Shown here: piece by piece, positions 3,142 to 27,616 of the stretch
How positions within the stretch are numbered: the stretch's first letter is position 1
Layout: each line of letters begins with the position of its first letter
Virus record (IMG/VR): IMGVR_UViG_3300006052_000019
Coordinates: 1 to 36,228 of that record
Length of the DNA stretch: 36,228 nucleotides
Reading direction: 5' to 3' (one strand)
Source: a virus
Lineage: Duplodnaviria > Caudoviricetes
Notes under the pieces: model-generated
What the model saw: only the letters and a program-made list of their open reading frames with translations
What the model was told of the DNA's origin: nothing
The model's database searches: none
Translations under genes and position numbers: made by a program

Positions 3142-3476
3142 AACTTCTCCTCCGGATCCCCGTTGACGCGCGCACGGAACGGCGGGCCCTTGGGGTTGAG
3201 CTTTGTAGGCTTGCCTCGCGCCTTGCGGGCCTTCTCAATGGCCTCCGTTGTCTGGCGCTTGGGTTTTGGAAAATTCTTGATCGATGCCATGGCACTCCTT
3301 TTGAACCATTGGGGCTTGAACTTTTGCAACTGCAAAATGCGCCTGGCCGGGATCTCGCCAGTACGCACCCAGCGGTTGATGGCTTGCTTGCTGATCGGTT
3401 CACCGTGTTCGATGAACAGGTCCCTCAGGTGGTAAGGCCGGCCACCTGCAAATGAAATCGCGTCGACTGTTCTCAT
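3138..3476 (-). CDS. Cro-like HTH regulator with basic C-terminal tail
   Basis: MRTVDAISFAGG...ISKQAINRWVRTGEIPARRILQL is a Cro/YdaS-like pattern; first gene of the operon. Confidence 0.75.
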   Translation of the reverse strand: MRTVDAISFAGGRPYHLRDLFIEHGEPISKQAINRWVRTGEIPARRILQLQKFKPQWFKRSAMASIKNFPKPKRQTTEAIEKARKARGKPTKLNPKGPPFRARVNGDPEEKL

Positions 3477-3484
3477 GGTTGGCG

Positions 3485-3514
3485 AGGATACAATTCACGA
3501 ACCATCAACGTCAA
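3485..3514 (-). promoter_or_regulatory. sigma70-like promoter for the cro-acb2-terS operon
   Basis: TTGACG-N18-TATCCT on the minus strand, ending 8 nt upstream of the cro ATG. Confidence 0.55.
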
Positions 3515-3527
3515 TCGCGGGTTTACC

Positions 3528-3827
3528 ATGTCCAAGTTTGGAAACATCAAGACGAACGGGTTCGCCTCGAAGAAGGAAGCGCGTCGCTACGCAGAGCTCT
3601 CGCTGCAGAACAAGGCCGGGCATATAACTGACCTGCGGACCCAGGTGTCGTACGAACTCATCCCAAAGCAGGAGGGAGAACGAGCGATATCGTACGTTGC
3701 CGACTTCGTTTATCGGCAGGACGGGAAGGTTGTCGTCGAGGATGCCAAGGGGTTCCGGACTGACGTGTACCGGATCAAGAGGAAGTTGATGCTTTGGCGC
3801 CATGGGATCAGAATCCTCGAGACATAG
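3528..3827 (+). CDS. DUF1064-family PD-(D/E)XK endonuclease
   Basis: SKF.N...FASKKEARRY.EL, YVADFVY, VVEDAKG..TDVYRIKRKL. Confidence 0.85.
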   Translation: MSKFGNIKTNGFASKKEARRYAELSLQNKAGHITDLRTQVSYELIPKQEGERAISYVADFVYRQDGKVVVEDAKGFRTDVYRIKRKLMLWRHGIRILET

Positions 3828-4008
3828 GGGCACACTTTACCCGCGCCGCCTCGCGTCCGCCCGAATGCACCCCAACGCGGTACCCTTCATTGAACGCCTT
3901 TTGCACATCAGCCTGGCGCTTCTCTTCCTTGAGGTCCTCGTTGCCCACCAGGGCAAACGCAAGAAGAATTACCAAGACTACAGCCGCACCTTTGATTACC
4001 GTGATCAT
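3808..4008 (-). CDS. small membrane-anchored hypothetical protein
   Basis: N-terminal hydrophobic helix, GGAGAGG SD, AFNEGYRVG motif. Confidence 0.65.
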   Translation of the reverse strand: MITVIKGAAVVLVILLAFALVGNEDLKEEKRQADVQKAFNEGYRVGVHSGGREAARVKCAPMSRGF

Positions 4009-9131: not shown

Positions 9132-12100
9132 TCAATACTGGGATCGTTCCTGCACAGACTGCAAGTGAGACCTCTCAGCCTCAGTTGCGCCTCTCCAGAA
9201 TTTCTTTTGCTGTGACTTGCTAAGGCCAACTGTATTGGCTGCCCGGTACATCATCTGGCGCTCCTTGCCGTAGATGTTGTTCTCGTCCATGAGCTTTTCG
9301 GCCTTCTCGGTGTCGCCCTGCTTGATCGCTTTGATGATGTCTGGCCTTGCCTCTTGCACGTCCATCTGGTGGCTCGTTTGATCGGAGTGCATGGCGCCCA
9401 TCGCTTCGCCGCCTGGGTAGCCCTTGCTCGTCGTGACGGTAAGGGGAGGCGGGATCAGCGGACCGGCAATCGTCGAGGCGTCGAGAGTCTTGCCGTTGCC
9501 GGTGAGCATGTTATGCAAGGCCTCTATCTCTCGCATTGGCAGCTGCGCCTGTATGAAGTGCTTGGCGATCTTGGCGCCGGCGGTTGCCAGGTCGTCGTCT
9601 GGCCGATAGATCCGGCGGCCGAAGTTGTCTTGATTGGCGAACGCTTCCGTTACCGGCTTGGCCAGGGTTGACATCTTGTTCTTGAGCATGGTTCCTGGCT
9701 TGGTCAACCATCCCTCCATCTCCTCGCCGATCTTCCCGAACGGCGTGCGGCCGTAGACAGCGGTGCCGTCCTCGTCGTGGCCCATCAGGAAGCGGTCGCG
9801 CTTGCCTTCCTCGTTCTCGCCCTGGGGCAGGAACGACTTGATCGTGTCGGGCCAGCTGAGCGGGTTCAGGACCGTATGGATCGGATGGTCGAACACCTGT
9901 TGCGTGCTTTCGTGCAAGAGGTTGGTGTACTTTTCCCACTGATCCCCAAGCCCCTGGGTGTCGTACCAGGCGCGGTCCTTGTCTTTGTTGTCGCGTATTG
10001 CGCCGATGCCAACCTGCAGCATGGCGTTGAGGCCATACATGAGTGCTATATCAACCGCGACACCGGCGCGCGCCTTGTGGGCCGCGAACGAGATCGCCTT
10101 GCCCGCCTCCTCCTGATTAAGCTCCTGGCGCAGCTGGGACTTGATGTCGCGCGGCAGGCCAGAGATTGCGTCCTTCATCGCACCAAGGTTCCCCAGGGTG
10201 AACGACCTGGAGAACATCATCACGTTGGCAACCTTGCGCCCCATGGCCGATATCGACTCTGGCGGCAGCGCGCCTGCGTACCGGTTGGCAATGTGCGCAG
10301 CCACCAGGGCAGAGGCCCGATCGCTGTGACCATCCTTCATCATGCGGTTGTAGATCTCGTTGGCGATGCCGGCTTGGAGCTCTGCCACCCGGTCCCACAA
10401 CAAGGTGCCGTGGACAAAGTCTCCGGCTCGGTCGATGCCGCCCTTGATAGCTTCGCCGGCGCCTTTGTTCACCAGGCCTACCGCGCCCCCAATACCCTTG
10501 GCCAGAAGTCCGCGACCCTTCTCGAGGTCCGGCTCTCGGCCGATCGAAGTGATGTCCTCGTACATGCCCTGGCGCCCGATCGGGACATAGCCGGCACGGA
10601 TGAACTTTTGCATCTTTTCCGGATCCTGAAGCATCGCGCGCCCGCTCTTCCAGAAGCCGGTGCCAGGCAGCATCTTCAAGCCCATGACCGGAAACGCGCG
10701 GCCGACCTCCACGCCCAGGTGAATGAACGGGCTCCACATGATCGCGGTGGTTGCGCCGTTCTTCATGGCCAGCAGCGCCTTGTAGATCTTGCCCGACGGC
10801 TGCGTGAGCACGGCCTTGAGCGGTCCCTCGAACTCCTTGGGAATCATCCGCTGCCTGACCGTCCAGTTCAGCTTTCCCTTCTCGTCCTCCTCGGCCCGAT
10901 AGCTCTTGAGGGCCGGGTGATCGAACGTGACGAACTCGCGCGGATCCATGGCCAGGTCCTGCGAGAGCTCCTGAATCCGGTTGACGAGCTCGCGCCCGGC
11001 GATCGCTTTCTCCAGGCGGGCCATGGCGATCGGCATCGTGCGGATGTCCTTGATGAAGCCGGCGCCGGTGCCGAATTTTGCCTTGAGCGCCTCCTCAGCC
11101 TCGGCCGTTGTGAGGTGCTTGCGGCCTGTCAGGTTGCTTGACTTGGTCGTCAGGCCGCCAGGGCCCGTGCCGCGGTTGCCAAACTCCGTGAGGTGTCCGA
11201 CCTCGCCGTCTTCACCGATCAAGGCGGCCACGCGGGGGACCCAGTAGTCGACGCCGCTGCCCTCGTACATGCCGGCGGCCTTGGCGCGCTGCATGAGCGC
11301 CTCGCCGTGCGCAGTCAGGAAGTTCATGACGTCCTGCTGATCCTTCGGGAGAGATGCCAGGCCCTTGGTGGGATCCTCAGCGGCGCCGGTGCGGCGCATG
11401 TCGTTCTCTTCGTCGCCAGCTTCCCACATCCGCTTGAGTTGCTCGGGCGTGAAATCCTTGGTCAGGATCTCGTGGAACCGCTGATAGTTCCAGGACGCTT
11501 CGCGCATGTGGTTGGCAAAGTCCTTGACCATCGCCATGGACCGTTCGGACCCGCGGACCATGGGTGATACTTTCGACAGGTAGTCCTGGACGATGCCCTC
11601 GCTCCAGTCGCGCACCTGCTTGCCGACATTAGATTCCCAGAGGCGCTTGAAGATGCCTGGCTTTTTGGCTAGCTCCGGCGCCTGCTGCTGCCCAGGGATC
11701 GAGTACAGGATGCTCGGATTGTTTTTATCGAACGCGCCACTGTTGCCTATTGCAGACTTGATCTGTGACTTATCGAACACTTTGTATTCGGTACCACCTG
11801 CTGTCTCGCCATTGCCCCCATGGATTGCTCCATCAAATCCAGCGTCCTTTAATTTTTTGACAAAGTCCTTGTCGTCAAGCAAATGATAGGCATCCATGTA
11901 GAGCTTGTTGATCTCGCCAGGATTTCGCTTAACCATGTCAGCGACAGAATCGTATTTGCCGGAGAAGTTCTCTTGCCAGTTGTCGGTCCCCTGGATGATG
12001 TCGGCATGCTCAAGAGCAACACGCTTGGCTTCTTCTGGGCCAAGAGTCTTTGCTATGTGCGATATATCAACAAATGGATCGCCTGTCTTATCGTTGATCC

Positions 12101-15100
12101 ATGGCTTTTCGATCCTAAGGTAAGCGGGTATGACACGCGAATGCTCTGCCGTACCGTCTAACTTCAGGTCGTTCGGCGTTTGCGCATAAGCGTTGGCTGC
12201 TTCCTTGTCACCGAATGATATGGAACCCCTGCGAGACTGGATCTCCTGATCCGTCTCGCCATGCTCGCCACGGTATACGCGAATCGGGTTGCCTTCATCA
12301 TCCTTGGCCTTGCTATCTCCGAACCAATTTTTGAATTCATCGGTATCGGGAGCCTTGAGGCTGTAAGAAATGCGGCCGTCTTCCGGGTCCCAGGTGCCTT
12401 TGTTACCTGTCGCGGATTTCAATTGCTTGGGGTCGAACACCGCGAGAGTTTCATCGCTGGCGTTATGCTCTCTCTCGTAAAATCCGTCGTGATTCCCACG
12501 AATATATTTTTGCGCTTCCGGCCGTTCAATCGTTTGCCAATCGCCCATGCTCAAACGATCACGCAAAGACGATTTCATTTGTTGACCATCATCGTCCCGG
12601 TAAGGCGGCAACTTGTCTATGCCAGGATCGTTTTTTTCAAGATGTCTTGCTAGAGCTTCAACGTGTTGTTTGTTATTTGGATCCCATGGATTTTCCGCTC
12701 GCACATACAGCTTGTGGACGTTGAGGCCCTCAGGGTTTTTGCCGTACTTAAACTCCGACACTCCAATCGCATCGTGCGGATTCGCGGCCGTAAAAATTGC
12801 TCCAGCAACTCCGTCTCTTTCTACGCCTGGACGAAATGACTCGATATCATTGGCAGTTGTAGCGTGATACATGGGCCGAGGCTCACGACGCTTCATCGCT
12901 TCATTTTTTGCGGCGTGGAAAGAATCGTATTCATCCTGCATCCGCTGAATAAACGAATCAAACGCTTTCTTGCCGTAATACTTTTCCGCAAAACTGCGTC
13001 CGTATTCGTCGTCCGAAGAGGAGGCTTTTGCATATCGCTCGTCGTTGATTTTGCGTTCGGCTTCAACGTCTGGTTTTTTGGGAGGCACAACGCTTTCAAA
13101 TCTACGGCCACCATGAACGACGCTGTTCCCAAACCATCGCTTAAAAGCTGGCGTATCGGTTTGCTTTTCTTCTTCCTTTAGTCTGGCTGCGTTCCCCAGT
13201 TCTTCAGGTTCGCTGGCACCATGCTCGACAGTTCCGGGTCTTTGCTCTCGTCCTGGTCGTTGCCCATCGCCAGATAATTCTCCGGCGTAAGAGGAATCCC
13301 GTTTTCCCGCATGTATTTCTGAACCGTATCCTCGCCACTCCGGTTCGCGGACGCCGCCTGAGAGGGCTCTGAGTTGTTCGCGGGCCTGATCTGGGCTGAT
13401 CTTCCCCGCGCTTGCTTCATTCCAGATCCTGTCCGCTTCACTTTTCATCCCCTTCTTTGATGCGGCCTCATACATGCCGCGCACAGCTTCCCAAGAAATT
13501 GACTGCATCTCTCTGGGCAACAACTGTCGCTCAACGGCCGCTCGACGATACGCCTCTTGAACTAGCGGGTAAACACCGCGGATACCGGTAGCAGCAGATC
13601 GTGCTGGTCCTGGTTCCCCAGGTTGTCCGCTACCAAACAAGTGCGCCACCTCAAGATCGGATTGCCCAAGCGGGCGCAACAAGGCTGCTGCCATTGCGTG
13701 CGTATCTGCCGTCAGGAATCCGTGCGGCGAGTTGGGGTCGACAATGTTGTGGTAGAAATTTCTGACCTTGTGCATCTCGCCTAGTTGCGCGCTGATGTTT
13801 GATCGCGATCCGTCGTGGAATATGGATATGGCCTTGGCCATTGGCTTTAATCCGGCGCCCCACGCGGTGACGGCCTCTTCGCCACCCTTGGGGGTCTTTG
13901 CAAAGTCGGCGAAGCCGCCTTCCGGAGTAACAAGACGGAAGCGCCGATCGTTGTGCTCCTCATCGAACGACTTGATCCACATGGCTTGGCCAAGGTCATT
14001 GCCTTCGAGTTCACGAAGCGTCTTCCCTTTGACCGAATCGTAGAGCGATTGGTTGAACGCCCTTCCCTTTGGGTTCGTGCTGCGCTCGACAAAAGCGCGA
14101 GCGTTAGCGTCCATCTCCGGAGTCCACGGCCGGTCCATGTGTTTTTTGAGGGCTGTCGCAATACGCTCCATCTGAGACACGTTTACGTCCCAACGCGTCT
14201 TTGGTGAGAGCGCGGCAAGCATGCCGGCAGACTGTCGCGTGGTGATATCGAACCGCTTGGCGAATCTGTTGGAGATATTGTTGGCGCCGTCGTACCATTT
14301 TTTGGCGCGGCCGCGTATTTGATCCGAGAACTGATCGTGCAACCACAGGAGATTGTCCTTCATGTGGTTGATCATTTGCTCGGCCTTGGACATCGGCGTG
14401 CCATCAAGACCCTTAAAGTTCGAGTATTTGCTCATTACGCCGACGTTTTGCTCGACCTTGTCCGGCTCGGTTTGGTGTGTCTCCCAATCCGACAACAATG
14501 GTTTTTCTTGTTCGTGCGCCACCGTTTTGAGACGGCCCTTGTAAAGCGCCGTCGGGTTGCGCGCTCCCACCCAGTCTGGTCCTTCGTCCGAACCCATCCG
14601 CGCAGCGTTGCCCATGGGCTGCACGGCCTTCATGGATCCGTTGGCCGCCGATCGCAGCGCCGAACGAGTCAGGCCTCGCAGGACGCCGGCGTCCACCTTG
14701 CCGATCCCGAAATTCTTGTAGAGGAAAGCTTTGGCGCCATCCATCATCTTTCCGATAGGACCGCGGTCGTAGCCTGTTTCCACCAGGTGGGCTGCCACCT
14801 CGCGCATGAAAGCCTGGCCACCCTCTGCCATCATCAGCTGGCCAGACTTCTCGTGCCCGGCCGGGAAGGTGTAATTTTTCTTGACCGTGTCCCACACCTT
14901 CTTGATCTCTGGGTCGGTCTGCGCACGATCCTTGAGGTCCTTAAGCAGCTGAGCGTACTTGTCAAAACCAAGCATGCGCGACAGGCCGTAATGCTCACCG
15001 ACCTCGTGCATCATGAGCGACGGCGATGTATGCGGATCAGCGCGATCAGTGTAGATTTCGACGTGGGCCGGCTCGCCGTTCCTGGCTGCTATGTACATAG

Positions 15101-18100
15101 CCTGGGCGCGCGGGTCGAGCTTGTCGCCCAACGCGCTTTGGTCTGAAGGAATAATCCGAACGATGCCCCGGTCTTGGAGCTTCTTGGCGGTGCCGTCGCC
15201 AAAAACTCGGTCGATCTCGTCCTCGTGAGCACCGACACGCTGCCGCTCTTCTACCGGTGCCAGGAGTTGATCTACTTTTTCCCGGCTTTTCTTGGGACTG
15301 GTTTGCCCTTTGCCGGCCTTGTCACTGGCAGGCTTACTTGCTACTATTGGTTCGGAAGGAGAAGCAATGAACGGTGCCGAAGTACTCGCCTCTGTCCCGC
15401 CCGGTTCGGTCTTCTTCGACGTCGACGGCGTCCCGGCCGTCCGGTTCCCGGATGGCTCCTGCTGGAATTTCTGGGGCGGCTCCAAGGACCCATTCCCGCC
15501 GGCGCGCGTGAGCTCTTTCGGCGACAAGGTGCCACCAGCCGAGTTCGCCGCCCTGGTCGACTCGTCCGTCAAACGCTGATTCTCGGCGTCTTTGGCGGCC
15601 CCGTACAGGTCGGACTGGGCCGCTGTCAGTTCCTTGATGCGGTCGCCGTCCTTCTTTGGATCAAGGTCCCGTCTCAGCTCGTACAGATGGTGGCCAATGT
15701 CCTTGGATGCGATCGTCTCTGGCGTATGGATCTGGACCTCGGCGATATGTCCGTCGGGCATTTGCACGTTTATCAGGACATCGCGGTAACCCTCTTCCGT
15801 TGGCTTCGCAAAACGGTCTTTGAGTTTAACCACCGCGTCCTTGCCAAACGCCGCCTTGATGGCCTCTATGGCCTTGGGAACTTCGGCAGATGAATGAATC
15901 ACGATGGAACCGCGCAAGAGGTCTTTGAGACCCGTCTCGTCGCCCTTGTAGTCGGACCAGAGCTTCTGAATGGTCCGGCCTTCTTCCTTTATCTTGGCAA
16001 TGACGGCGTCGCCACCCACAGCCGAGGCGGCGGCGCGCAGCTTGTCCGAATAGTCAGCCAGGTTGCGCTTGGCGCTTTCGATCATTGGCGCAATCCTCTT
16101 GCGCCCTTCGACAAACTGCTCCGGCGTAGGCTTGGGACCTTCAGGCTTGGGCTGTTCCAGGAACTTGCGGACCCGGTCCATGATCGGCTTGGGGATGATC
16201 CTGTCAAGCGATACCCCGGTGAAGTGGGTGTTGGCGTCCTTGGCTGGCGCGCCTTCCTCGCCTTCAATCCGCACGGGCAACTTCTTCCAGCCAAACTCGC
16301 GCGCGGTCGTGACCGTGCCGTTGCCGTCGACCACGTCGAACTTGCCATCCGCGCGCCGGCGCACGGTGATCGGGTCGCGACGAGGCACCGCGCCGCGCGC
16401 TGCCGCCTCCATGCGCTTTGGCGCGTTCTCCAGGCCCTGCTTGTTTTCGGATTCAGTCTTGGTCGACAAGAGGTCGTCCAGGCTTACCGTGTGCGTGTCC
16501 GGCGTCAGGTTGAAGTAGGCCCCGTGGTCCTCGGGCAGTTCGGTCGGGCGCTCCTTTTTGTCGACCACCCGCTTGAGGTATTCCTTGGTGGTCTCGCCCT
16601 CGCGCTGCGGCTCGTACTCGTCTACAGGTCTTCCTTGGTCGGCTCCGGCCGCTCCGCCGCGGTCAGACCCGGATTGCTGAACCTCTGGTCCGGCTTGAGG
16701 ATGCTCGCCGCCGTCGGTGGTGCCACCGCCTTGTTGATCCCGTACGGCGTCCCTCCCTGCTTCCACGGGCTGGGTTTCTTCAGCTGCTCGACGTACTGCT
16801 GGTTCTTGAACCTCGCCAGCTGGTCGTGACTCATCGCTTGCGCCGCCTGCACCAGGCTCGCGCTGCCGATCGGTTGCGGTATCGGGTTCATTGATTTTCC
16901 TTATCTCTGCCATGAATCCGGGACCGTGCTCCGGATGCTGCTCTGCAGCAGCCTGGACTGCGTCAGGATCTTTGTGCAGCGCCTCGCGCACCTCGGTCAG
17001 GTCTAGCCCGTGTTCCGGGCCCAGGCCGTGCAGTTCTAGGCTGGTACGGTCGCGCGCTTCCTCTATGAGATCTTTGCTGGTCTTGCCTTTTTGCTCGGTT
17101 GCCGCGCCGGAATTTGGGACAGAGGATGGCGGCTCTACCTCTCCAGTCGGAGAGGACTCCGGCGCGGCAGACTGTGCTGCGCGATCGCGCAGGTTTTTCC
17201 ATTCGTTTCGTTCGGCGTCGGTGAGAAATTGCGCATGCTCCCCAACCTCAACCGTGGCGTCTTTACGGCCAGCTTCCCGTGCCTGCTGGTCAGCGATGGT
17301 AATCCGGGTGCCCTCGGCCTTGCGGGTGAGATCAGCCAGGCGGGACTGCTCCTGATCCGAAAGCGCACCCTTCCCAGGGCCCGTAGGAGCCCCAGGTTCG
17401 ATTCCAATGCCGCCGGGCTCCGGAGCTACTGCCCGGAGTTTCTCGACGGTTGTGACCCCTTCTGGAGCCTCCTGGCGGCCTTCCAGCGTTTGCGGGGCCG
17501 GCGTCGGCGTCTGTCCGTTTAGGAGTTCCTGGATCTGACGGGCTTGATCTTCCGGGGTAGCCCGGCCGCCCACTATGCTGGCCGCCTTGTGCGCCGCGCC
17601 AAAAGCGGCGGTCTGGACCACGCCGCCAATGACAGCATCTTGGATCTGTTGCGGCAGCGTTTTGGCCCACTGCTCAAAGGTCATGTCCGGATTGGCCACA
17701 GCCGCATCGATGGCCGATGACACAACCGAGGAGGCCGCACCAAGGCCACTGTTGACGGCCGCGTCAGCGACAAACTTGCGCAAACTATTGGCCCCACCCA
17801 GGCGTTCGATAAACCTTCCTACCGGGATAGCGCCAGCGGCGGCATTGACGGCGCCTACCCCAATGCCCGCACCCAAAGCTTCAGCCCGGCTGCCGCCACG
17901 CGCCGATACGTTGGCCACTTCTTCGCCACCAGCTTGCAAGCCAAAAGCCGCCGCCGCCGGTATGACGCTGCCCGTAATAACGCTGGCGGCCACCGCCGGA
18001 GCCGACACCGCGACGCCGGCGGCTGCATCAAAAGCTTTCTCGCCGATCCCGTGACCCATCTCAGGATGAGTAACTTCCGCCTCTAGCTGGGCCTGCTTTA

Positions 18101-18458
18101 CTTCGCGTATACCGCGCTGGACCATGTCTTCGTTGCCAACCAAGTTTCCGACCGCCGCATGGATACCGCCGGCCAGGGAACCAGACTTGGTCAATGTCCC
18201 GTAGGTGCGCTTAAACGATTCGTAGATGTAACCAAGGTCAGCGCCGATCCCGCCCTCTGGCCGTGGCGCATCTTCCTGGTCACGCGCCACGCCGGTAACC
18301 CCGCTGGGCGGGATAACAGCATCTGGCTCCGGCTGCGGCTTGAGCCAGTCCTGGGATACCGGGTGTCCGTTGGCCTGCAACTTGGCGAACAGGTCCGCCT
18401 TGGACATGCCATCGGGCACGCCTTGAACCGTAGTACCGTCTGGCAGTTGAACGTCCAT
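9132..18458 (-). CDS. 3108-aa large polyvalent / internal virion (ejection) protein
   Basis: Last of the internal-virion genes. ParB-like about 16260-16500 (PITV...VVDGN), RelA/SpoT-like about 15590-16100 (KDLLRG, GYRD, EVQIHT), zincin HEVGEH 14991-15008, DUF7178-like about 13440-14350 (WY, AALSP, KVRNF, TADTH), two ART-like domains about 11700-13160 (FK.WFG.S...YH/YR...VF...Q.KSA.GN), LPD38-like C-terminus. Confidence 0.85.
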   Translation of the reverse strand: MDVQLPDGTTVQGVPDGMSKADLFAKLQANGHPVSQDWLKPQPEPDAVIPPSGVTGVARDQEDAPRPEGGIGADLGYIYESFKRTYGTLTKSGSLAGGIHAAVGNLVGNEDMVQRGIREVKQAQLEAEVTHPEMGHGIGEKAFDAAAGVAVSAPAVAASVITGSVIPAAAAFGLQAGGEEVANVSARGGSRAEALGAGIGVGAVNAAAGAIPVGRFIERLGGANSLRKFVADAAVNSGLGAASSVVSSAIDAAVANPDMTFEQWAKTLPQQIQDAVIGGVVQTAAFGAAHKAASIVGGRATPEDQARQIQELLNGQTPTPAPQTLEGRQEAPEGVTTVEKLRAVAPEPGGIGIEPGAPTGPGKGALSDQEQSRLADLTRKAEGTRITIADQQAREAGRKDATVEVGEHAQFLTDAERNEWKNLRDRAAQSAAPESSPTGEVEPPSSVPNSGAATEQKGKTSKDLIEEARDRTSLELHGLGPEHGLDLTEVREALHKDPDAVQAAAEQHPEHGPGFMAEIRKINEPDTATDRQREPGAGGASDESRPAGEVQEPAVRRAAEETQPVEAGRDAVRDQQGGGTTDGGEHPQAGPEVQQSGSDRGGAAGADQGRPVDEYEPQREGETTKEYLKRVVDKKERPTELPEDHGAYFNLTPDTHTVSLDDLLSTKTESENKQGLENAPKRMEAAARGAVPRRDPITVRRRADGKFDVVDGNGTVTTAREFGWKKLPVRIEGEEGAPAKDANTHFTGVSLDRIIPKPIMDRVRKFLEQPKPEGPKPTPEQFVEGRKRIAPMIESAKRNLADYSDKLRAAASAVGGDAVIAKIKEEGRTIQKLWSDYKGDETGLKDLLRGSIVIHSSAEVPKAIEAIKAAFGKDAVVKLKDRFAKPTEEGYRDVLINVQMPDGHIAEVQIHTPETIASKDIGHHLYELRRDLDPKKDGDRIKELTAAQSDLYGAAKDAENQRLTDESTRAANSAGGTLSPKELTRAGGNGSLEPPQKFQQEPSGNRTAGTPSTSKKTEPGGTEASTSAPFIASPSEPIVASKPASDKAGKGQTSPKKSREKVDQLLAPVEERQRVGAHEDEIDRVFGDGTAKKLQDRGIVRIIPSDQSALGDKLDPRAQAMYIAARNGEPAHVEIYTDRADPHTSPSLMMHEVGEHYGLSRMLGFDKYAQLLKDLKDRAQTDPEIKKVWDTVKKNYTFPAGHEKSGQLMMAEGGQAFMREVAAHLVETGYDRGPIGKMMDGAKAFLYKNFGIGKVDAGVLRGLTRSALRSAANGSMKAVQPMGNAARMGSDEGPDWVGARNPTALYKGRLKTVAHEQEKPLLSDWETHQTEPDKVEQNVGVMSKYSNFKGLDGTPMSKAEQMINHMKDNLLWLHDQFSDQIRGRAKKWYDGANNISNRFAKRFDITTRQSAGMLAALSPKTRWDVNVSQMERIATALKKHMDRPWTPEMDANARAFVERSTNPKGRAFNQSLYDSVKGKTLRELEGNDLGQAMWIKSFDEEHNDRRFRLVTPEGGFADFAKTPKGGEEAVTAWGAGLKPMAKAISIFHDGSRSNISAQLGEMHKVRNFYHNIVDPNSPHGFLTADTHAMAAALLRPLGQSDLEVAHLFGSGQPGEPGPARSAATGIRGVYPLVQEAYRRAAVERQLLPREMQSISWEAVRGMYEAASKKGMKSEADRIWNEASAGKISPDQAREQLRALSGGVREPEWRGYGSEIHAGKRDSSYAGELSGDGQRPGREQRPGTVEHGASEPEELGNAARLKEEEKQTDTPAFKRWFGNSVVHGGRRFESVVPPKKPDVEAERKINDERYAKASSSDDEYGRSFAEKYYGKKAFDSFIQRMQDEYDSFHAAKNEAMKRREPRPMYHATTANDIESFRPGVERDGVAGAIFTAANPHDAIGVSEFKYGKNPEGLNVHKLYVRAENPWDPNNKQHVEALARHLEKNDPGIDKLPPYRDDDGQQMKSSLRDRLSMGDWQTIERPEAQKYIRGNHDGFYEREHNASDETLAVFDPKQLKSATGNKGTWDPEDGRISYSLKAPDTDEFKNWFGDSKAKDDEGNPIRVYRGEHGETDQEIQSRRGSISFGDKEAANAYAQTPNDLKLDGTAEHSRVIPAYLRIEKPWINDKTGDPFVDISHIAKTLGPEEAKRVALEHADIIQGTDNWQENFSGKYDSVADMVKRNPGEINKLYMDAYHLLDDKDFVKKLKDAGFDGAIHGGNGETAGGTEYKVFDKSQIKSAIGNSGAFDKNNPSILYSIPGQQQAPELAKKPGIFKRLWESNVGKQVRDWSEGIVQDYLSKVSPMVRGSERSMAMVKDFANHMREASWNYQRFHEILTKDFTPEQLKRMWEAGDEENDMRRTGAAEDPTKGLASLPKDQQDVMNFLTAHGEALMQRAKAAGMYEGSGVDYWVPRVAALIGEDGEVGHLTEFGNRGTGPGGLTTKSSNLTGRKHLTTAEAEEALKAKFGTGAGFIKDIRTMPIAMARLEKAIAGRELVNRIQELSQDLAMDPREFVTFDHPALKSYRAEEDEKGKLNWTVRQRMIPKEFEGPLKAVLTQPSGKIYKALLAMKNGATTAIMWSPFIHLGVEVGRAFPVMGLKMLPGTGFWKSGRAMLQDPEKMQKFIRAGYVPIGRQGMYEDITSIGREPDLEKGRGLLAKGIGGAVGLVNKGAGEAIKGGIDRAGDFVHGTLLWDRVAELQAGIANEIYNRMMKDGHSDRASALVAAHIANRYAGALPPESISAMGRKVANVMMFSRSFTLGNLGAMKDAISGLPRDIKSQLRQELNQEEAGKAISFAAHKARAGVAVDIALMYGLNAMLQVGIGAIRDNKDKDRAWYDTQGLGDQWEKYTNLLHESTQQVFDHPIHTVLNPLSWPDTIKSFLPQGENEEGKRDRFLMGHDEDGTAVYGRTPFGKIGEEMEGWLTKPGTMLKNKMSTLAKPVTEAFANQDNFGRRIYRPDDDLATAGAKIAKHFIQAQLPMREIEALHNMLTGNGKTLDASTIAGPLIPPPLTVTTSKGYPGGEAMGAMHSDQTSHQMDVQEARPDIIKAIKQGDTEKAEKLMDENNIYGKERQMMYRAANTVGLSKSQQKKFWRGATEAERSHLQSVQERSQY
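13178..13441 (-). CDS. nested +1-frame small protein within the polyvalent gene
   Basis: GAAGGGG SD before GTG 13441 (alternative ATG 13420 with AGGA). Protein-like core DTVQKYMRENGIPLTPENYLAM...DPELSSMVPANL; the main frame here is a low-complexity linker. Confidence 0.6.
   Translation of the reverse strand: MKRTGSGMKQARGRSAQIRPANNSEPSQAASANRSGEDTVQKYMRENGIPLTPENYLAMGNDQDESKDPELSSMVPANLKNWGTQPD
15319..15361 (+). promoter_or_regulatory. antisense sigma70 promoter and RBS inside the polyvalent gene
   Basis: TTGTCA (15319-24), N17, TACTAT (15342-47) with extended -10 TG (15339-40); AAGGAG at 15356-61; ATG 15367. Confidence 0.75.
15367..15579 (+). CDS. nested antisense 70-aa protein, candidate antidote to the RelA/SpoT-like domain
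   Basis: Own promoter and SD. Globular-looking MNGAEVLASVPPGSVFFDVDGVPAVRFPDGSCWNFWGGSKDPFPPARVSSFGDKVPPAEFAALVDSSVKR. Lies in the Ser/Thr/Gly/Pro linker that begins where the RelA/SpoT-like domain ends. Confidence 0.72.
   Translation: MNGAEVLASVPPGSVFFDVDGVPAVRFPDGSCWNFWGGSKDPFPPARVSSFGDKVPPAEFAALVDSSVKR
16622..16891 (-). CDS. nested +1-frame 89-aa ORF within the polyvalent gene
   Basis: TAAGGA-AAATCA-ATG; the ORF coincides with an R/G/E/Q/D-rich linker of the main frame just before ParB. Confidence 0.5.
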   Translation of the reverse strand: MNPIPQPIGSASLVQAAQAMSHDQLARFKNQQYVEQLKKPSPWKQGGTPYGINKAVAPPTAASILKPDQRFSNPGLTAAERPEPTKEDL

Positions 18459-21919: not shown

Positions 21920-22723
21920 TCAACCGCCAGGCGTCTGGTTGTTCGTTGTATCTGCAGGCATGGTCTGCCAGGTCGAAAGAGAATCAACCTCTGCCTCAGC
22001 CTCCCAGTCCCATTCGTCCTGCAAGGGAGCAGGCGGAAGCACAACGATCGATTGGTTGATCGTGACTTCGATGCGGTTGGCGGCGACATTGTCGGTGGCC
22101 GTCCAAGACACGCCGGACCCGTTAACGAAATTGATCTGTCGGCGCCAGCCCACCGTAGCCCCATTGAGCATGACCGTGATCAGCTGCTGGTCAGGCTGCA
22201 CCTCAACCGCGGTAGCACTCAGGGCGACCCCCACCTGCAGGGCAGGGTAACCGTTCACTGGTGTCTGGGTGAGCGCGCCGGCCGGGCCGCAGAATACCGG
22301 GTACGAAGGGGCGAACGATGAGCCTGGGACATTTGCCACCTGGCCCTGGGTGGCCACCGTCACCGCGGCGCCAGCAGCAACGCTGCTCTGAGCTATCCCA
22401 ATGATCGCGTACGACTGGGACAAGATGGTTGGGTCCGCAACGGAAACGTATCCGCTCGATGACTCGTAGACCGCCTGGCCAGACGTGATGGCCACGCCTG
22501 CCTTGTAACTGGTGGTGCTCGATGTGCTTGACGACGAACCAGACGATATGCTTGAGACCGACGTCTGAAGCGCCGTGATCGAGGCTTGCGATGTTTTTGT
22601 CGCGGTAGACACGGCCGCCTCCAAAGCGGTCAGCCTCTGACGTATCGCGTCTATAGCAGCAAGCACCGCGCGGTCTGCTCCGTGCGGAAGGTTGATGGCG
22701 GGGAATCCTACCTTGCCGCTCAC
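21920..22723 (-). CDS. virion structural / fibre-associated protein with DUF2190-like domain
   Basis: N-terminal coiled coil; AG.AI..GQAVY...IIGIA....AG..V.V...G...VGVALSAT; C-terminal DEWDW motif. Confidence 0.65.
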   Translation of the reverse strand: MSGKVGFPAINLPHGADRAVLAAIDAIRQRLTALEAAVSTATKTSQASITALQTSVSSISSGSSSSTSSTTSYKAGVAITSGQAVYESSSGYVSVADPTILSQSYAIIGIAQSSVAAGAAVTVATQGQVANVPGSSFAPSYPVFCGPAGALTQTPVNGYPALQVGVALSATAVEVQPDQQLITVMLNGATVGWRRQINFVNGSGVSWTATDNVAANRIEVTINQSIVVLPPAPLQDEWDWEAEAEVDSLSTWQTMPADTTNNQTPGG

Positions 22724-23706
22724 ATCAGATCCTCTATGTCCTCGGCGAACTGCACCCGGTTGATCTTGTCAGTCCCTGACAACGAGAATTCAAAATACCT
22801 TACGCAGGCCCCTCCAGGTGGCTGCGGAAGGATAAATTCATTTTGTCCGGTCACCGGTATGTTGCCACCATACTGGGTCCCGTCAGCAAAAAGATTGAGG
22901 GTTGTGCTTGCATAACTGTCGGCCGTCACCCTACAGAACATGTATGCGGTTGGCCACGGAAGATAAAACTGCTTGGACTTCCAACGATACGGAAGTTGAG
23001 CGCCAGAATTAGCGTTGAAAGAAACTATCGACGTGTTGGTGTAAGAGGGGTTTGGAAACGCCGATGTTGGCGGAGTAAATGCGGCCGTGTACTGAGCTAT
23101 AGCACTTAACCGCAACTCGTCGACATAACCAACAAAAGCTGAGCCGGTTGGATTGAACCCGCCGAATTGCAACGTCGCAGTATTGCCCAAAGGGAATATG
23201 GAACCAGGGCTGGATATGGCACCAACAACAGCGCCGTTCAAATAAAAAGTGAAGTTGCCAAGATACCGAACAAGGGCAACGTGAGCCCAGGCGTTCGCTG
23301 GAAGAGAAACCGTAGCGGTATTTTGGTACGAACCGTTGATTGCTATTTGAGCTTGAACTGTCGTTCCACCAGAGTTGCTAAAAAACTGCAGGCCCACTTG
23401 GCTCAGAGCGGATTGCAAAGCTACAACGTAAGGATAGTTTGTGTTGACCGATCCAAAATTTATGGCGTAGACCCAGAACTCTAAAGTGAAATCTCCGGAC
23501 CCGTAATCAAGAGCACCCTGCGGCAAAATGCCGACCATGTAATTGCCTGACACCGGAACAGACAATGATGATCCACCAAACTTAGATTGGGCCGTACTAA
23601 TGCTGCAACCAACATTGGTTGATTGAACAAATAGACCAGCAGAGTCCACGAAAGACGTTGAACCATTGGGCCCGTCAAAATGCATTAGGACGTTTACTAT
23701 TGACAT
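22720..23706 (-). CDS. LamG (ConA-like) domain plus tail-nozzle C-terminal module, copy 2
   Basis: LMHFDG.NGST, GDFTLEFWVY, WAHVALVR, GYVDELRLS; then YRWKSK...FADG...FEF...QFAEDIEDL. Confidence 0.75.
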   Translation of the reverse strand: MSIVNVLMHFDGPNGSTSFVDSAGLFVQSTNVGCSISTAQSKFGGSSLSVPVSGNYMVGILPQGALDYGSGDFTLEFWVYAINFGSVNTNYPYVVALQSALSQVGLQFFSNSGGTTVQAQIAINGSYQNTATVSLPANAWAHVALVRYLGNFTFYLNGAVVGAISSPGSIFPLGNTATLQFGGFNPTGSAFVGYVDELRLSAIAQYTAAFTPPTSAFPNPSYTNTSIVSFNANSGAQLPYRWKSKQFYLPWPTAYMFCRVTADSYASTTLNLFADGTQYGGNIPVTGQNEFILPQPPGGACVRYFEFSLSGTDKINRVQFAEDIEDLM

Positions 23707-23708
23707 GA

Positions 23709-24716
23709 CTACGTCAACTCCTGCACGTCTTCAGCAAACTGGGCTCGCGTAACCTTGTCTGTGCCGACTATCTCAAACTCGAAGTACTTGAAGCACGTCA
23801 CGCTTGGTATGCGGAACTCGTACTGACTGGTTATCGGAACGCTAGCAAACTGCACTCCGTCAGCGAAAAGATTCAAAGTTGTGTTGAGGTAGCTGTCAGC
23901 GGAAACACGAGCAACTTGATAAGCGGTTGGCCATGGCACGAAGAAACGTTTTGACTTCCAACGATACGGAAGTTGGTTTGCTTGATCGTTGTTGAAAGCT
24001 AGTATCACCCCTGTTGGAGCGGTTGGCACATAGAAGAAAGGAGCCGTCGCCGGCGTGTAGTTTGCCGTGTATAGGCCGACTCCCTTGGTTACGCGTAGCT
24101 CGTCGTAGTTGATGTAGTTCTGGGTGAACGTCTGGAAAAAGAAAGCGTTCGATACGTCGTATCCGCTGTAATTAAAATTGTCGGCTGTTGAAACGTCCAG
24201 GACACCATCAATAAAAAGCCTGCTTACGTTCGATGCTCTGGATATTGCGACAGAGTGCCATCCTGATGCAGGAACGATAACTTTGGTGCCGATAAGGTTC
24301 TGCGTAGTTGCCGAGTTCGAAAAGCGCAAGCCACCAGGTGGATTGTTTTGTATATACAGCGATGGCTCGTTGCCAGTTGCTGCGGCGCCAATGTATGCGC
24401 AAGGGTTGAATATCGTATTGCCAGTGGTCGCGCTTCCGCTTGTTATGTTCATCCAAAATTCTATGGTGAAATCAGCGGTGCCAAAATTGAAATCAGTTGT
24501 AGTTCCAAATACCAGACCAGGCGGTCCGTTGTTTACGGGGTTCAATCCTGTGAATGAAGAAACGCCAAATTTTGCTGTCGATGTATCTATGAAGCAAGAC
24601 GTCGTAGGCGCACTTGGTCCTTGATAGAACGTGATTGACCTGGACGGGTTTGCGACGTCCGTGGTCACCGTTGAGCCATTGGCACCATCAAAGTGCATCA
24701 GCAAAACAGTTGTCAT
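23709..24716 (-). CDS. LamG (ConA-like) domain plus tail-nozzle C-terminal module, copy 1
   Basis: LLMHFDGANGST, DFTIEFW, WHSVAISR, DELRVTKG; same YRWKSK...QFAEDVQEL tail. Confidence 0.75.
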   Translation of the reverse strand: MTTVLLMHFDGANGSTVTTDVANPSRSITFYQGPSAPTTSCFIDTSTAKFGVSSFTGLNPVNNGPPGLVFGTTTDFNFGTADFTIEFWMNITSGSATTGNTIFNPCAYIGAAATGNEPSLYIQNNPPGGLRFSNSATTQNLIGTKVIVPASGWHSVAISRASNVSRLFIDGVLDVSTADNFNYSGYDVSNAFFFQTFTQNYINYDELRVTKGVGLYTANYTPATAPFFYVPTAPTGVILAFNNDQANQLPYRWKSKRFFVPWPTAYQVARVSADSYLNTTLNLFADGVQFASVPITSQYEFRIPSVTCFKYFEFEIVGTDKVTRAQFAEDVQELT

Positions 24717-27616
24717 GGCGTCGGGTTCGAGTCAAGCACAAGATAAAGAGTATCGGTCAAGGGATCGTTGTACCGCGCTATGGCGTGGAACGCGAGCGAC
24801 ACCTTGCCGGAACCGGCAGCGTTGACGTCCAGATAGAAGCCCGCGTTGGTTCCTCCGGATATCGTGTAAAAACAGAAATACCGGTTATCGTTTATCACGG
24901 CCATCATTGATGCCGGATTCAGAGCGAGCCATTCATCTTTGGTGAACAGAGTCTCCGTGAGCAGTCTTTCGCTTCCTGGAGCAGCAATGGCGACCAATCC
25001 CTCGAACGTGGCGAATACAACACCGACACCCTTGAGATACTGGATCGACTGCTTGCTCGCGCAAGCGTATGCGTAGCTTGCCTTGGTCTGCGAGTACTGG
25101 TCTGGGGTCTGCCCTGAACACAAGTAGGGGAACTTTTTCGTGCAGACGACAACGGTGGAGTCGATCGCCTCGATCCCGACAATGTCCCAGTCAAACGTGA
25201 GCCGGTAGGCTATAGGCCAGGCATGCGGTACGCCCTGGGCAGACAGGCACAGCTGGTTGCCGGCGAACCCCGCATAGATCCCGTTAGGAAGGGCCAGGAT
25301 GCCCTGCATGTTCACTGGCGGTGGATACCATGCAGTTGAGGCTATCGCGGTCACCAAGGCCGCATCCGGGAGCGCGTCGACTATTCCTGAAGTGAATGTG
25401 CCTGGCACGGTAGCGCCGGATGTCCCAACCTGGGTGACGGTCCCGAAACCTATCCCTGTTGCAACGAGCAAGAAGGCGGTGCCTGTTGATCCAGTGACAG
25501 CGCGGTACACGTTCATGCTCGGACTCACGCCGCCAGTCACCTGGTTGACGTTAGGTATGGAGGCTCCACCACCCTGGAAGTACGTTGAGTCGACGCCGGT
25601 TGCAGAAAGGCTTGAAGGGAGCGGAACGCACACCGCCTGGTTGATGGGGCGCTGCAAAGTACCCGATCCGTCCGATGTGATCATTGCCGGACATGGGCCT
25701 GACTCAAGGCCCAGATCGTTGACCACGGTATAGACGTAGCTGGTGTACTCGAGGTTGGATGAGGATGATGCTGGGCCAGTGCCGGACAGTTGCAAGTTGT
25801 CGTACCAGACCTCAGCCCAATCTGGGAAGGATTGTCCTGCCACCTGCATGCAGCCCATACCAAAACCAGAACCAGCGTTTGGCATGGTTGCCTGAGACAG
25901 TGTGAACGCGGTGATCACCGTTGATCCATCCGATATGGTCATGGCAATCGTCGAGGTGCTCACTGGACTTGCAGGTGTGATAGTGAAAGAAGCCGTGTAC
26001 CAGTGGCCAGCCCGAAAAGCTCCAGTCCAGTTTGGATCGGTATCGGTCTGCCAGGTCGATATGGAAGCAGAAGCAATGCTCGTCTGATTGATGATGGAGG
26101 CCGGGGCTCCGTTGTTCACCGCCTGCCATATCACCTGCACACCGGTTGAGGTGTGGTGAAGGCGGATCATTGACCCACTCCCACCTGTGTCCAGGCTGAA
26201 ATAAAAATCGATGTACGAGTAAAGCAGGTAGTCGTTCGTGAGACGCTGAACGGCGAAATTCACGGACATGGTGATAGGAGCCGTGTTCAGTATCGCCTGA
26301 GTCTTCCAACCAAAACCAGTTACATTGCCAATGCTTCTTGTCTGAAGGCACGCTCCAGGGTTGCCGCCGGTGATCGATATGATGCCAAACGAATAGCCGG
26401 GAACACTTACGAGGTTCCAGTTGGATGCACCGTCAAATGTTTCGGTGATTGATACCGATCCAGATCCTACGACCGCTGGTACAAAAAACGGATTGGTCAC
26501 CGGCACGGTCGGGTTGGGGACTCCAAGCTTGCGCGAGTAGGTTGGGTAAGGGCCAGACGCAGCACCCAAGGTCGAAGACCCCGTCACAGGCTGATTGGTG
26601 GTGACGTAAGCAGGACCAGGATTGGCGATGGTCGGAGTACCCAGTGCTGAAGGCACGAAGTTGCCGGCAGCGTCAGGGAAGGATGTCGATCCATTTGCGC
26701 CATTGAACTGCATCAGAACGATCGTGTTCGAGTCCGTCGACATTGAGTTTGGCGGCAGAGGAACAAACGTCGTTGAGTACCTGGCAACATTTGAAATACG
26801 AAGGTCCTTGATGTTTCCGTTGACGTACCACGTCGGGCCACCGGTCGAGTCGTTGTTGACGAACAGAGCAAGCTGAGCGGTTGATGAAATACTTGAGGCG
26901 TAAGCGCCGGTGCCAACGGAGACGCCGTTGAAATAGATCGTGACGACGCCGCTCTTTCGGACAACTGCAAGGTGCGTCCATGTGTTTGAAGCTATCAAAG
27001 ACGCGCCACTGTTGATGGTCGTCGCGTTGTTGTTGAGTATTAAAGAACATCCACCAGTTGAAAAAACTATTTGCCATATACGTTGACTGCCACTGAGGTT
27101 CCACACGCCAGCCAATTGTTGCGTGGTTCCAATGGCCGTATAGACCCATGCCTCAACAGTGAAATCTCCTGTGCCAAGATTTGACACACCAGATGGCGCG
27201 GCACCAACAAGCCCAGAAGCGCCGTTCCCGTTGTATACCGGGAAAGTGATGGAGGCTCCTGGGCCGGTAAGACCTGAAGAAAGTCCTATGTCAGTGAACC
27301 GCGGCACGTCGGTTCCGGTGAATATAGTGCGGTAAGACTTGTCTCCGGCGATAGCCATTTTGGCTACGTCGACCTCTATGGCCGGTGACGTAAGCTGCGT
27401 TGCATTCCAGGTCAACCACACCTGGTCTGCCAAGTAATAGATGGTGACTGGGTTTGTGACTATGCCCTGGCTGGTGACTGTGGAAAAGTTTTTCCACGAC
27501 TCCAGGTTGCCGGATATCAGGCGCGCGTTGGCGCTGTTCTGCCCCATGTCGTTGGGCAGAAGGCGAGGAGCTATACGGGGAGCCTCGCCCTTGAATGTAC
27601 CGACATCGATGGCCAC
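24713..27616 (-). CDS. tail tubular B / stabilization (nozzle) protein, N-terminal part, with inserted lectin-like domains
   Basis: FKGEAPRIAPRLLP, YVYTVVND.G.ESGP, W.PPP.NMQGI..LPNGI.AGF, PHAWP..Y, C.SK.SI; LamG insert about 26570-27240 and a second beta insert about 25770-26460. Confidence 0.75.
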   Translation of the reverse strand: MAIDVGTFKGEAPRIAPRLLPNDMGQNSANARLISGNLESWKNFSTVTSQGIVTNPVTIYYLADQVWLTWNATQLTSPAIEVDVAKMAIAGDKSYRTIFTGTDVPRFTDIGLSSGLTGPGASITFPVYNGNGASGLVGAAPSGVSNLGTGDFTVEAWVYTAIGTTQQLAGVWNLSGSQRIWQIVFSTGGCSLILNNNATTINSGASLIASNTWTHLAVVRKSGVVTIYFNGVSVGTGAYASSISSTAQLALFVNNDSTGGPTWYVNGNIKDLRISNVARYSTTFVPLPPNSMSTDSNTIVLMQFNGANGSTSFPDAAGNFVPSALGTPTIANPGPAYVTTNQPVTGSSTLGAASGPYPTYSRKLGVPNPTVPVTNPFFVPAVVGSGSVSITETFDGASNWNLVSVPGYSFGIISITGGNPGACLQTRSIGNVTGFGWKTQAILNTAPITMSVNFAVQRLTNDYLLYSYIDFYFSLDTGGSGSMIRLHHTSTGVQVIWQAVNNGAPASIINQTSIASASISTWQTDTDPNWTGAFRAGHWYTASFTITPASPVSTSTIAMTISDGSTVITAFTLSQATMPNAGSGFGMGCMQVAGQSFPDWAEVWYDNLQLSGTGPASSSSNLEYTSYVYTVVNDLGLESGPCPAMITSDGSGTLQRPINQAVCVPLPSSLSATGVDSTYFQGGGASIPNVNQVTGGVSPSMNVYRAVTGSTGTAFLLVATGIGFGTVTQVGTSGATVPGTFTSGIVDALPDAALVTAIASTAWYPPPVNMQGILALPNGIYAGFAGNQLCLSAQGVPHAWPIAYRLTFDWDIVGIEAIDSTVVVCTKKFPYLCSGQTPDQYSQTKASYAYACASKQSIQYLKGVGVVFATFEGLVAIAAPGSERLLTETLFTKDEWLALNPASMMAVINDNRYFCFYTISGGTNAGFYLDVNAAGSGKVSLAFHAIARYNDPLTDTLYLVLDSNPTP

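Follow-up and report, generated by a model that had tools for sequence, protein, structure and literature searches.

In polyvalent proteins, ParB, RelA/SpoT, zincin, ART and LPD domains are joined in one large multidomain polypeptide, and the passages of the original description considered here propose that such proteins grow by accretion of solo domains, are delivered together with the DNA and are processed by the zincin (Iyer et al. 2017, PMC5512222). Here we analyze a gene of this type, which encodes 3108 amino acids (aa) and occupies positions 9132 to 18458 of a 36,228-nucleotide stretch of viral DNA (IMG/VR record IMGVR_UViG_3300006052_000019; Duplodnaviria, Caudoviricetes), hereinafter the window. 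Three linkers of the encoded protein coincide with small open reading frames (ORFs), denoted A, B and C. Comparison with homologous loci shows that both B and C are conserved, that each goes with a single domain family, and that each exists in nested and free-standing forms. The reading we favor, with a probability of about two in three, is that the protein links a series of enzyme domains, that two of its linkers, and likely a third, are small partner genes translated in a different frame, and that the product of B likely binds and blocks a predicted (p)ppApp-synthetase domain, as Tis1 blocks Tas1.

The closest solved relative of the synthetase domain is Tas1 (Apk1) of the type VI effector/immunity pair Tas1-Tis1 (PDB 6OX6), which also provides the top, albeit weak, fold match of B. 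According to the portions of the source used here, Tas1 synthesizes (pp)pApp, with depletion of ATP, and Tis1 has been proposed to block the acceptor site of Tas1 (PMC11782079). Both partners are small (76 residues in Tis1 versus 70 in B), but here the synthetase forms an inner part of a phage polyprotein, and the predicted partner is encoded antisense within a linker. The locus also resembles the MuF toxins of temperate phages, exemplified by Apk2-IapK-Aph1, in having a phage (p)ppApp synthetase (here predicted), a virion-associated carrier (here inferred) and an adjacent small immunity gene (PMC12226406, PMC12691689, as excerpted). In those excerpts, the phage Apk2 toxins are blocked by binding of the cognate IapK (PMC12226406), and the toxin is C-terminal, with iapK and aph1 as ordinary following genes, whereas here the toxin lies mid-protein and its partner in another frame. 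The layout with an N-terminal MuF domain and a C-terminal toxin was not found in this protein: the synthetase is internal (aa 777-962 of 3108), and no MuF domain was matched in Pfam or PHROGs scans.

The nesting itself has a counterpart in phage lambda, where the small gene Rz1 is wholly embedded in Rz in a shifted frame; spanin genes exist in embedded, overlapping and separate forms, and their products interact. The likeness lies in a small gene inside another in a shifted frame, with nested and separate forms; however, Rz/Rz1 is one fixed pair, whereas here several unrelated domain-specific families, on both strands, reside in one giant gene. In the main text of PMC5512222, as far as retrieved, the words 'overlap', 'linker' and 'glycosylase' do not occur, and 'nested', used twice, refers to a hairpin fold; the passages considered show no partner genes within linkers. 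No title or abstract found in a literature search that left most subscription journals outside described such nested genes in polyvalent proteins. The antisense family, the strict pairing and the specific functional lead are new here, and the finding joins polyvalent proteins with toxin-immunity pairs. The features that carry the argument are the following:

9132..18458, minus strand: polyvalent protein gene, intact, 3108 aa; the last virion-module gene ahead of the lysis cassette
15573..16130 (aa 777-962), minus strand: RelA/SpoT-type synthetase domain, Tas1/Apk-like (PF04607, E 1e-6, above cut-off)
15367..15579 (host aa 960-1030), plus strand: nested antisense gene B, 70 aa; predicted Tis1-like immunity protein
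15319..15361, plus strand: promoter-like site of B (TTGTCA-17-TG-TACTAT at 15319-15347) and its Shine-Dalgarno (SD) sequence AAGGAG
13344..14426 (aa 1345-1705), minus strand: DUF7178 domain, predicted HhH-GPD DNA glycosylase fold (E 2e-26, above cut-off)
13178..13420 (host aa 1680-1760), minus strand, +1 frame: nested gene C, 80 aa; alternative GTG at 13441
16622..16891 (host aa 523-613), minus strand, +1 frame: nested ORF A, 89 aa, or 70 aa from an inner ATG at 16834

In most of 23 polyvalent proteins compared by eye, the RelA-type domain is followed by the linker motif QEPSG..TGTPSTS, which, read from the opposite strand, is the DVxGxP of B. A profile of 13 antisense ORFs, with the window excluded, matched B of the window at E 2e-13. 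The 95 RelA loci fetched were reduced to 66 by removing the copy of the window, exact duplicates, 8 weak or unrelated hits and 5 loci for which anchoring failed. The iterated profile detected B in 42 of these 66 distinct loci, a count to be read with the caveat that, although the RelA core supplied the search patterns, the linker was part of the confirming query, and B-bearing loci may thereby be favored. By host length, B is present in 29 of 33 long hosts, in 8 of 12 with short tails, and in 5 of 21 hosts that end within 150 aa. It is always antisense, with its stop 179-245 nucleotides past the GYxD motif, and the 42 distinct starts retain an SD word in 39 cases and a TAnnnT box in 35. The same profile matched none of the 95 DUF7178 loci. 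In this adjacency of a small gene and in its tie to the synthetase, B behaves as genes of the Tis1/IapK type do.

The five B genes at hosts that stop within 150 aa are free-standing and convergent (L180-182, L187 and L192); overall, the convergent form was seen in L180-185, L187-190 and L192. A profile of three free-standing genes retrieves nested copies, down to E 6e-12, and same-strand genes behind the stand-alone RelA genes of L124 and L125 are also related to B (hhalign 89%, E 2e-6). Some small partner is present in 64 of the 66 loci (42 by hidden Markov model, HMM, and 22 by eye or with a separate profile). The 24 loci without a B match, assigned partly by eye, comprise 14 with another same-strand small gene, 3 with an in-frame extension, 3 with a same-strand relative of B, 2 with a B-like antisense ORF below threshold, and only two, L138 and L141, with no partner whatever. 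At two positions where the other 64 loci have Lys, these two have Arg; because they form one clade within the nested group, the partner loss and the Lys-to-Arg changes count as a single event.

Single-sequence searches found no homologue of B, and none of the RelA domain in viral contigs; the B profile, by contrast, matches 387 called proteins at E<=0.001. Neither B nor C has a credible family in Pfam or PHROGs or any in NCBIfam, and all Atlas leads fall under 0.9. Four of the called proteins (P0025, P0026, P0027 and P0040) contain 2-4 tandem B-family domains each, one of them behind a hydrophobic N-terminus, as expected of poly-immunity proteins. The synthetases of L101, L103 and L110 carry an in-frame C-terminal extension that by eye resembles a partner, possibly representing fused toxin-antitoxin forms. 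A different small family, likewise on the same strand, lies behind stand-alone RelA-type genes in L098-L117 and at L017:6570-6782 (Bordetella phage PHB04 gp033), and in PHB04 an HD phosphohydrolase gene comes next after the gp033-type gene, an arrangement like apk2-iapK-aph1. A by-eye likeness of B to this gp033-type family was not supported: the HMM missed B, and hhalign gave 1.4%.

Gene C begins within the last helices of DUF7178. For this domain, 95 loci were fetched, the second fetch being the best 80 of 541, and 81 are distinct; the C profile started from the window plus four loci and went through two iterations, and the pairing was assessed within the fetched loci. C is present in 67 of the 81, in the +1 frame in 64 and once each in the +0, +2 and antisense (L094) configurations. 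It accompanies all 16 hosts that stop less than 100 aa past the anchor, where it is free-standing as an ordinary overlapping neighbor, 32 of 38 that stop at 100-299 aa, and 19 of 27 that continue for 300 aa or more. Besides the copy of the window, no RelA locus contains C, and a single-sequence search with C returned just three chance-level phage matches. Thus, B goes with RelA (42/66) and C with DUF7178 (67/81), and the two are never crossed.

Each of the three ORFs is situated in a low-complexity linker, and they might be shadows of such linkers, open by chance and conserved through the host frame. In favor of this interpretation, SD-led nested ORFs are not in excess in this gene alone (3 versus 3.0 across 150 synonymous shuffles; promoter-like sites, 4 versus 2.5), so that signals in this gene alone prove nothing; the -2 frame can mirror host conservation, and ORF A has no homologue in single-sequence or BLAST searches or in NCBIfam. 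We nevertheless consider it very improbable. For B and C, it is refuted by the free-standing copies, which persist where the host frame has already stopped; moreover, B retains its SD and -10 boxes, is modeled with high confidence and recurs among hundreds of called proteins. Codon usage points the same way. With codon usage modeled on 13 other genes of the window and scored in 608 windows of 70 codons, the +1 frame outscores the host frame in 28 windows, all over A or C, and the -2 frame does so in 7 windows, all over B; the +2 and -1 frames never do. The -0 frame scores higher than the host frame in 13 windows, of which 6 lie inside C, 5 immediately upstream of B and 2 at other places. The places bearing a nested-frame codon signature thus coincide exactly with the three ORFs. 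ORF A, which exceeds the host frame by 0.24 per codon over a host segment with GC1 of 0.87 and GC3 of 0.47, is as strong in this respect as C and is likely a gene; the host segment ahead of it matched nothing in the search and has no recognizable domain. Two other candidates were rejected: the ORF at 9511-9711 has a strong SD yet no homologue and no codon signal, and that at 11653-11886 merely mirrors, in the -2 frame, the conserved end of an ART domain.

An initial examination of the DNA by a model that saw only the letters (the sequence-only reading) had noted that three linkers overlap small ORFs with expression signals and had proposed two checks, enrichment over codon-shuffled controls across polyvalent genes and consistent pairing of ORF families with domains; across homologues, both came out in its favor. 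All three ORFs are real features of the linkers, but only B has strong signals (SD duplex of -9.4 kcal/mol); the SDs of A (-5.8 at the inner ATG) and C (-4.1) are modest, and both lack a good -10 box. The consistent pairing is that described above, and the enrichment was observed across homologous hosts. In 59 non-redundant host stretches of at least 900 aa (359 kb), compared with 12 codon shuffles, there are 72 SD-led ORFs in the +1 frame versus 34.2 in the shuffles (standard deviation 3.9, maximum 41); with both an SD and a -10 box, there are 13 versus 3.6 in the +1 frame and 20 versus 3.2 antisense. Antisense ORFs with an SD only are not enriched (49 versus 45.1), which again suits the shadow interpretation, and the other frames are flat. 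Among 41 other long genes (87 kb), the +1 frame has 11 SD-led ORFs versus 6.2 (maximum 11), and those with a -10 box number 0 versus 0.4 in the +1 frame and 1 versus 0.4 antisense. B accounts for 18 of the 20 antisense ORFs with a -10 box, and 61 of the +1 ORFs are left after removal of C.

Several lines of evidence bear on what B and its domain are. The synthetase matches Tas1 in a single-sequence search (6OX6_A, E 3.5e-9) and with a profile (E 1.2e-27 versus 1.5e-6 for the next entry), that is, it is an RSH synthetase domain nearer to Tas1 than to (p)ppGpp synthetases. Residues K48, R52, K56, D70, R73, G114, Y115, E131 and Q133 are invariant across 39 sequences, and the conserved residues are intact in the window, although the product of such enzymes cannot be read from motifs with certainty, as stated in the part of PMC12226406 considered here. 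The AlphaFold2 model of B has a mean predicted local distance difference test score (pLDDT) of 93.8, and its top fold match among 48,161 chains is 6OX6_B, Tis1 (Z 4.5, root mean square deviation (rmsd) 3.8, 58 aligned residues). This weak match gains weight because both halves of one solved complex surfaced independently. The B profile has no sequence-level match to Tis1, and Foldseek found nothing for B at E<=0.001 in the PDB or viral libraries. B is likely the immunity protein of the predicted (p)ppApp synthetase domain; structural and contextual support for an antidote role exists for B only.

The DUF7178 model (pLDDT 93.3) finds 20 DNA glycosylases among its top 22 chains, the other 2 being the queuine salvage enzyme DUF2419; the best glycosylase match has Z 9.3 and rmsd 3.9 over 185 aligned residues. 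K220 and D241 are invariant in 50 sequences, and we take them, by motif, to be the catalytic Lys and Asp of HhH-GPD glycosylases. The model has what characterizes this superfamily, namely the fold and, by motif, the catalytic Asp and, as in the lyases, the Lys. It shares its predicted fold with Ogg, AGOG, EndoIII, AlkA and MutY, from which DUF7178 differs in the low identity (~10%), large insertions and the unusual small partner gene. Foldseek gave no PDB match at E<=0.001 for DUF7178, and a literature search found no paper on this domain. A predicted complex of DUF7178 with C scored 0.80, but one control reached 0.61, and the prediction is not used as evidence. By analogy, C is likely a binding or regulatory partner of the glycosylase-fold domain, dispensable in some lineages.

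The nested proteins could also be real without being inhibitors, acting instead as activators, chaperones or independent early effectors. C and A belong to no known family or fold, C can be dispensed with, and one further nested family, described below, lies back to back with the promoter of B rather than behind a domain end, all of which would agree with such roles. Inhibition fits better, however, with B and its domain matching both chains of the Tas1-Tis1 complex, and with a partner that is nearly universal and is lost jointly with active-site changes; we therefore regard non-inhibitory roles as unlikely.

Under the reading we favor, B would be expressed on the opposite strand from a predicted sigma70-type promoter of its own and so be made independently of the late operon; it would spare the producing cell, or a lysogen, the loss of its ATP during synthesis of the giant protein. 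The giant protein would then be packaged and ejected with the DNA; B, being a separate polypeptide, need not travel with the virion, and the synthetase domain could be active after entry into a new cell, up to the time when B is made from the incoming genome or a matching B is supplied by a resident relative. In evolution, read-through of an effector stop codon across the partner gene would extend the polyprotein by a domain and at the same time generate the linker. In a synthetase tree (63 rows, 4 near-copies omitted, midpoint root only), the free convergent B forms are one clade amid nested forms, and nesting spans much of the tree; the tree gives no direction of change, and capture by read-through and secondary release are both possible.

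Alternatively, the synthetase and B might be a toxin-antitoxin module for prophage or superinfection defense, in which B keeps the domain silent until an incoming competitor displaces B and triggers abortive infection, making active virion delivery unnecessary. In the passages considered, toxSAS modules such as CapRel are phage-triggered (PMC11782079, PMC12691689). Of 5 complete relatives, 2 encode an integrase of the tyrosine type and 1 has been classified as a provirus, so that protection of lysogens is possible, and the partner-like extensions of L101, L103 and L110 would also suit a module of this kind. Conversely, the domain resides within a late-module gene with no evident internal start, and no integrase was seen in 3 of the 5 relatives or among the 27 window proteins scanned, which represent only part of a genome. 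On balance, we give this defense module little credence.

A number of observations weigh against the reading we favor. The third positions of B coincide with those of the host, so that amino-acid conservation alone cannot tell which frame is selected. The Tis1 match of B is weak and within 1 Z of ranks 2-4. C is absent from 14 of the 81 DUF7178 loci, 9 of which were inspected and retain the Lys and Asp motifs, and in 19 nested loci its identity in the nested frame exceeds that in the host frame by a slight margin only (0.287 versus 0.250). Ejection is the least secure step because injecting an active ATP-depleting enzyme into a cell that the phage needs is costly. Finally, of the approximately 7 domains, a partner is established for only 2.

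The last point bears directly on a broader scheme, close to that of the sequence-only reading, in which a small cognate immunity or regulator gene behind each dangerous domain forms the linkers of a two-layer cassette array, effectors are ejected without antidotes, and antidotes made from internal host-polymerase promoters end the attack and decide lysogen immunity. No nested partner was found in this gene behind ParB, the zincin, either ART domain or LPD38, and for this reason it is not a full array; we hold the scheme to be doubtful. Of the notions that it extends, that of linkers as alternative-frame text of partner genes stands for B and C but falters at A, which has neither a homologue nor a domain ahead, and the likeness to a toxin-immunity system is supported structurally and contextually at B, with the partnerless domains and the dispensability of C against it.

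Polyvalent genes appear, from sequence comparison, to hold at least six further nested families, the remaining ORFs including clusters of 8, 7, 6, 5, 5 and 3 members, most of them behind one recurring host sequence. A +1 family of about 90-130 aa occurs in L139, L140, L151, L153, L159, L160, L162 and L164 (about 3470-3950); the L139/L140/L151-type family starts just downstream of the promoter of B on the host strand, back to back with B, and several members have a TATACT/TATAAT-like box. Another +1 family (L109:6444-6695, L119:4940-5113, L143, L145 and L155) follows a domain ending in PPAxxQAxIWYPEQELY, which by eye resembles the end of DUF7178 and is possibly a second glycosylase-type domain with its own partner. 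Further +1 families behind a recurring host sequence have 6 members (L139, L148, L152, L153, L163 and L191, at about 1240-2130), 5 members (L021, L065, L122, L123 and L155) and 3 members (L109, L119 and L155).

How a producing cell survives lethal-looking polyvalent enzymes is a question to which hidden partners would give an answer; the passages of PMC5512222 considered here name none. Read-through across partner genes would likewise offer a mechanism for domain accretion. Co-expression of the nested partner should permit cloning and purification of toxic domains, and the presence of a partner may flag uncharacterized domains as toxic. At least 8 small-protein families are added, and DUF7178 gains a predicted fold.

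The remaining domains of the giant protein, which was scanned piecewise against Pfam with cut-offs applied, are the following:

16224..16616 (aa 615-745), minus strand: ParB-like domain (ParB_N E 0.067, below cut-off; phrog_723 E 0.009)
14589..15311, limits approximate, minus strand: zincin-like region (HEVGEH at aa 1141-1146; phrog_873 E 0.002)
12393..12884, minus strand: ART-PolyVal domain 1 (Pfam, above cut-off)
11730..12302, minus strand: ART-PolyVal domain 2 (Pfam, above cut-off)
9486..9701, minus strand: LPD38-like stretch, weak (E 4e-4, below cut-off)

The claim of at least six recognizable domains in an intact 3108-aa ORF holds, with RelA_SpoT, DUF7178 and the two ART-PolyVal matches (E 4e-13 and 2e-13) above cut-off, and ParB, LPD38 and the zincin weak; several disparate conflict domains are thus combined in one polypeptide, as in polyvalent proteins. 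The ParB-like stretch has 19 BLAST matches among the fetched loci and proteins, and at L149:3424-4914 it has a gene of its own, situated downstream of a stand-alone synthetase gene with a small partner. The zincin, without a match in Pfam or NCBIfam scans, rests on its motif and a weak PHROG match; the motif fits the HEXXXH variant described for polyvalent proteins in the part of PMC5512222 considered. Release of domains by this zincin, as suggested in the sequence-only reading, would be a case of the processing already put forward for polyvalent proteins (PMC5512222). Both ART domains fall within positions 11700-13200, where the GC content is lower (0.48-0.54) and GC3 is 0.52 versus 0.66-0.83 elsewhere in the gene; the lower GC suggests recent acquisition of this stretch.

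The window covers part of the genome of a podovirus-like phage. Its minus strand carries the major capsid gene, followed by two SU10-type adaptor genes, tail and small virion genes, a 665-aa gene and the 3108-aa gene, 3' of which lie holin-like, GH108 endolysin and spanin genes, so that the giant gene belongs to the virion module, with capsid, adaptor and tail genes on one side and lysis genes on the other. In such phages, the last large genes ahead of the lysis cassette encode ejection proteins, and, judged by gene position only, the 3108-aa product would be an ejection or internal virion protein. Upstream of the capsid genes, a 1267-aa gene (32310-36113, minus strand) with a GC-rich middle contains a 512-aa antisense ORF at 32478-34016 and has no Pfam, PHROG, NCBIfam or PDB sequence match. 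At 22720-27616, three consecutive genes encode Laminin_G_3 lectin-like domains, two of them in low-GC DNA, and are likely a variable receptor-binding cassette.

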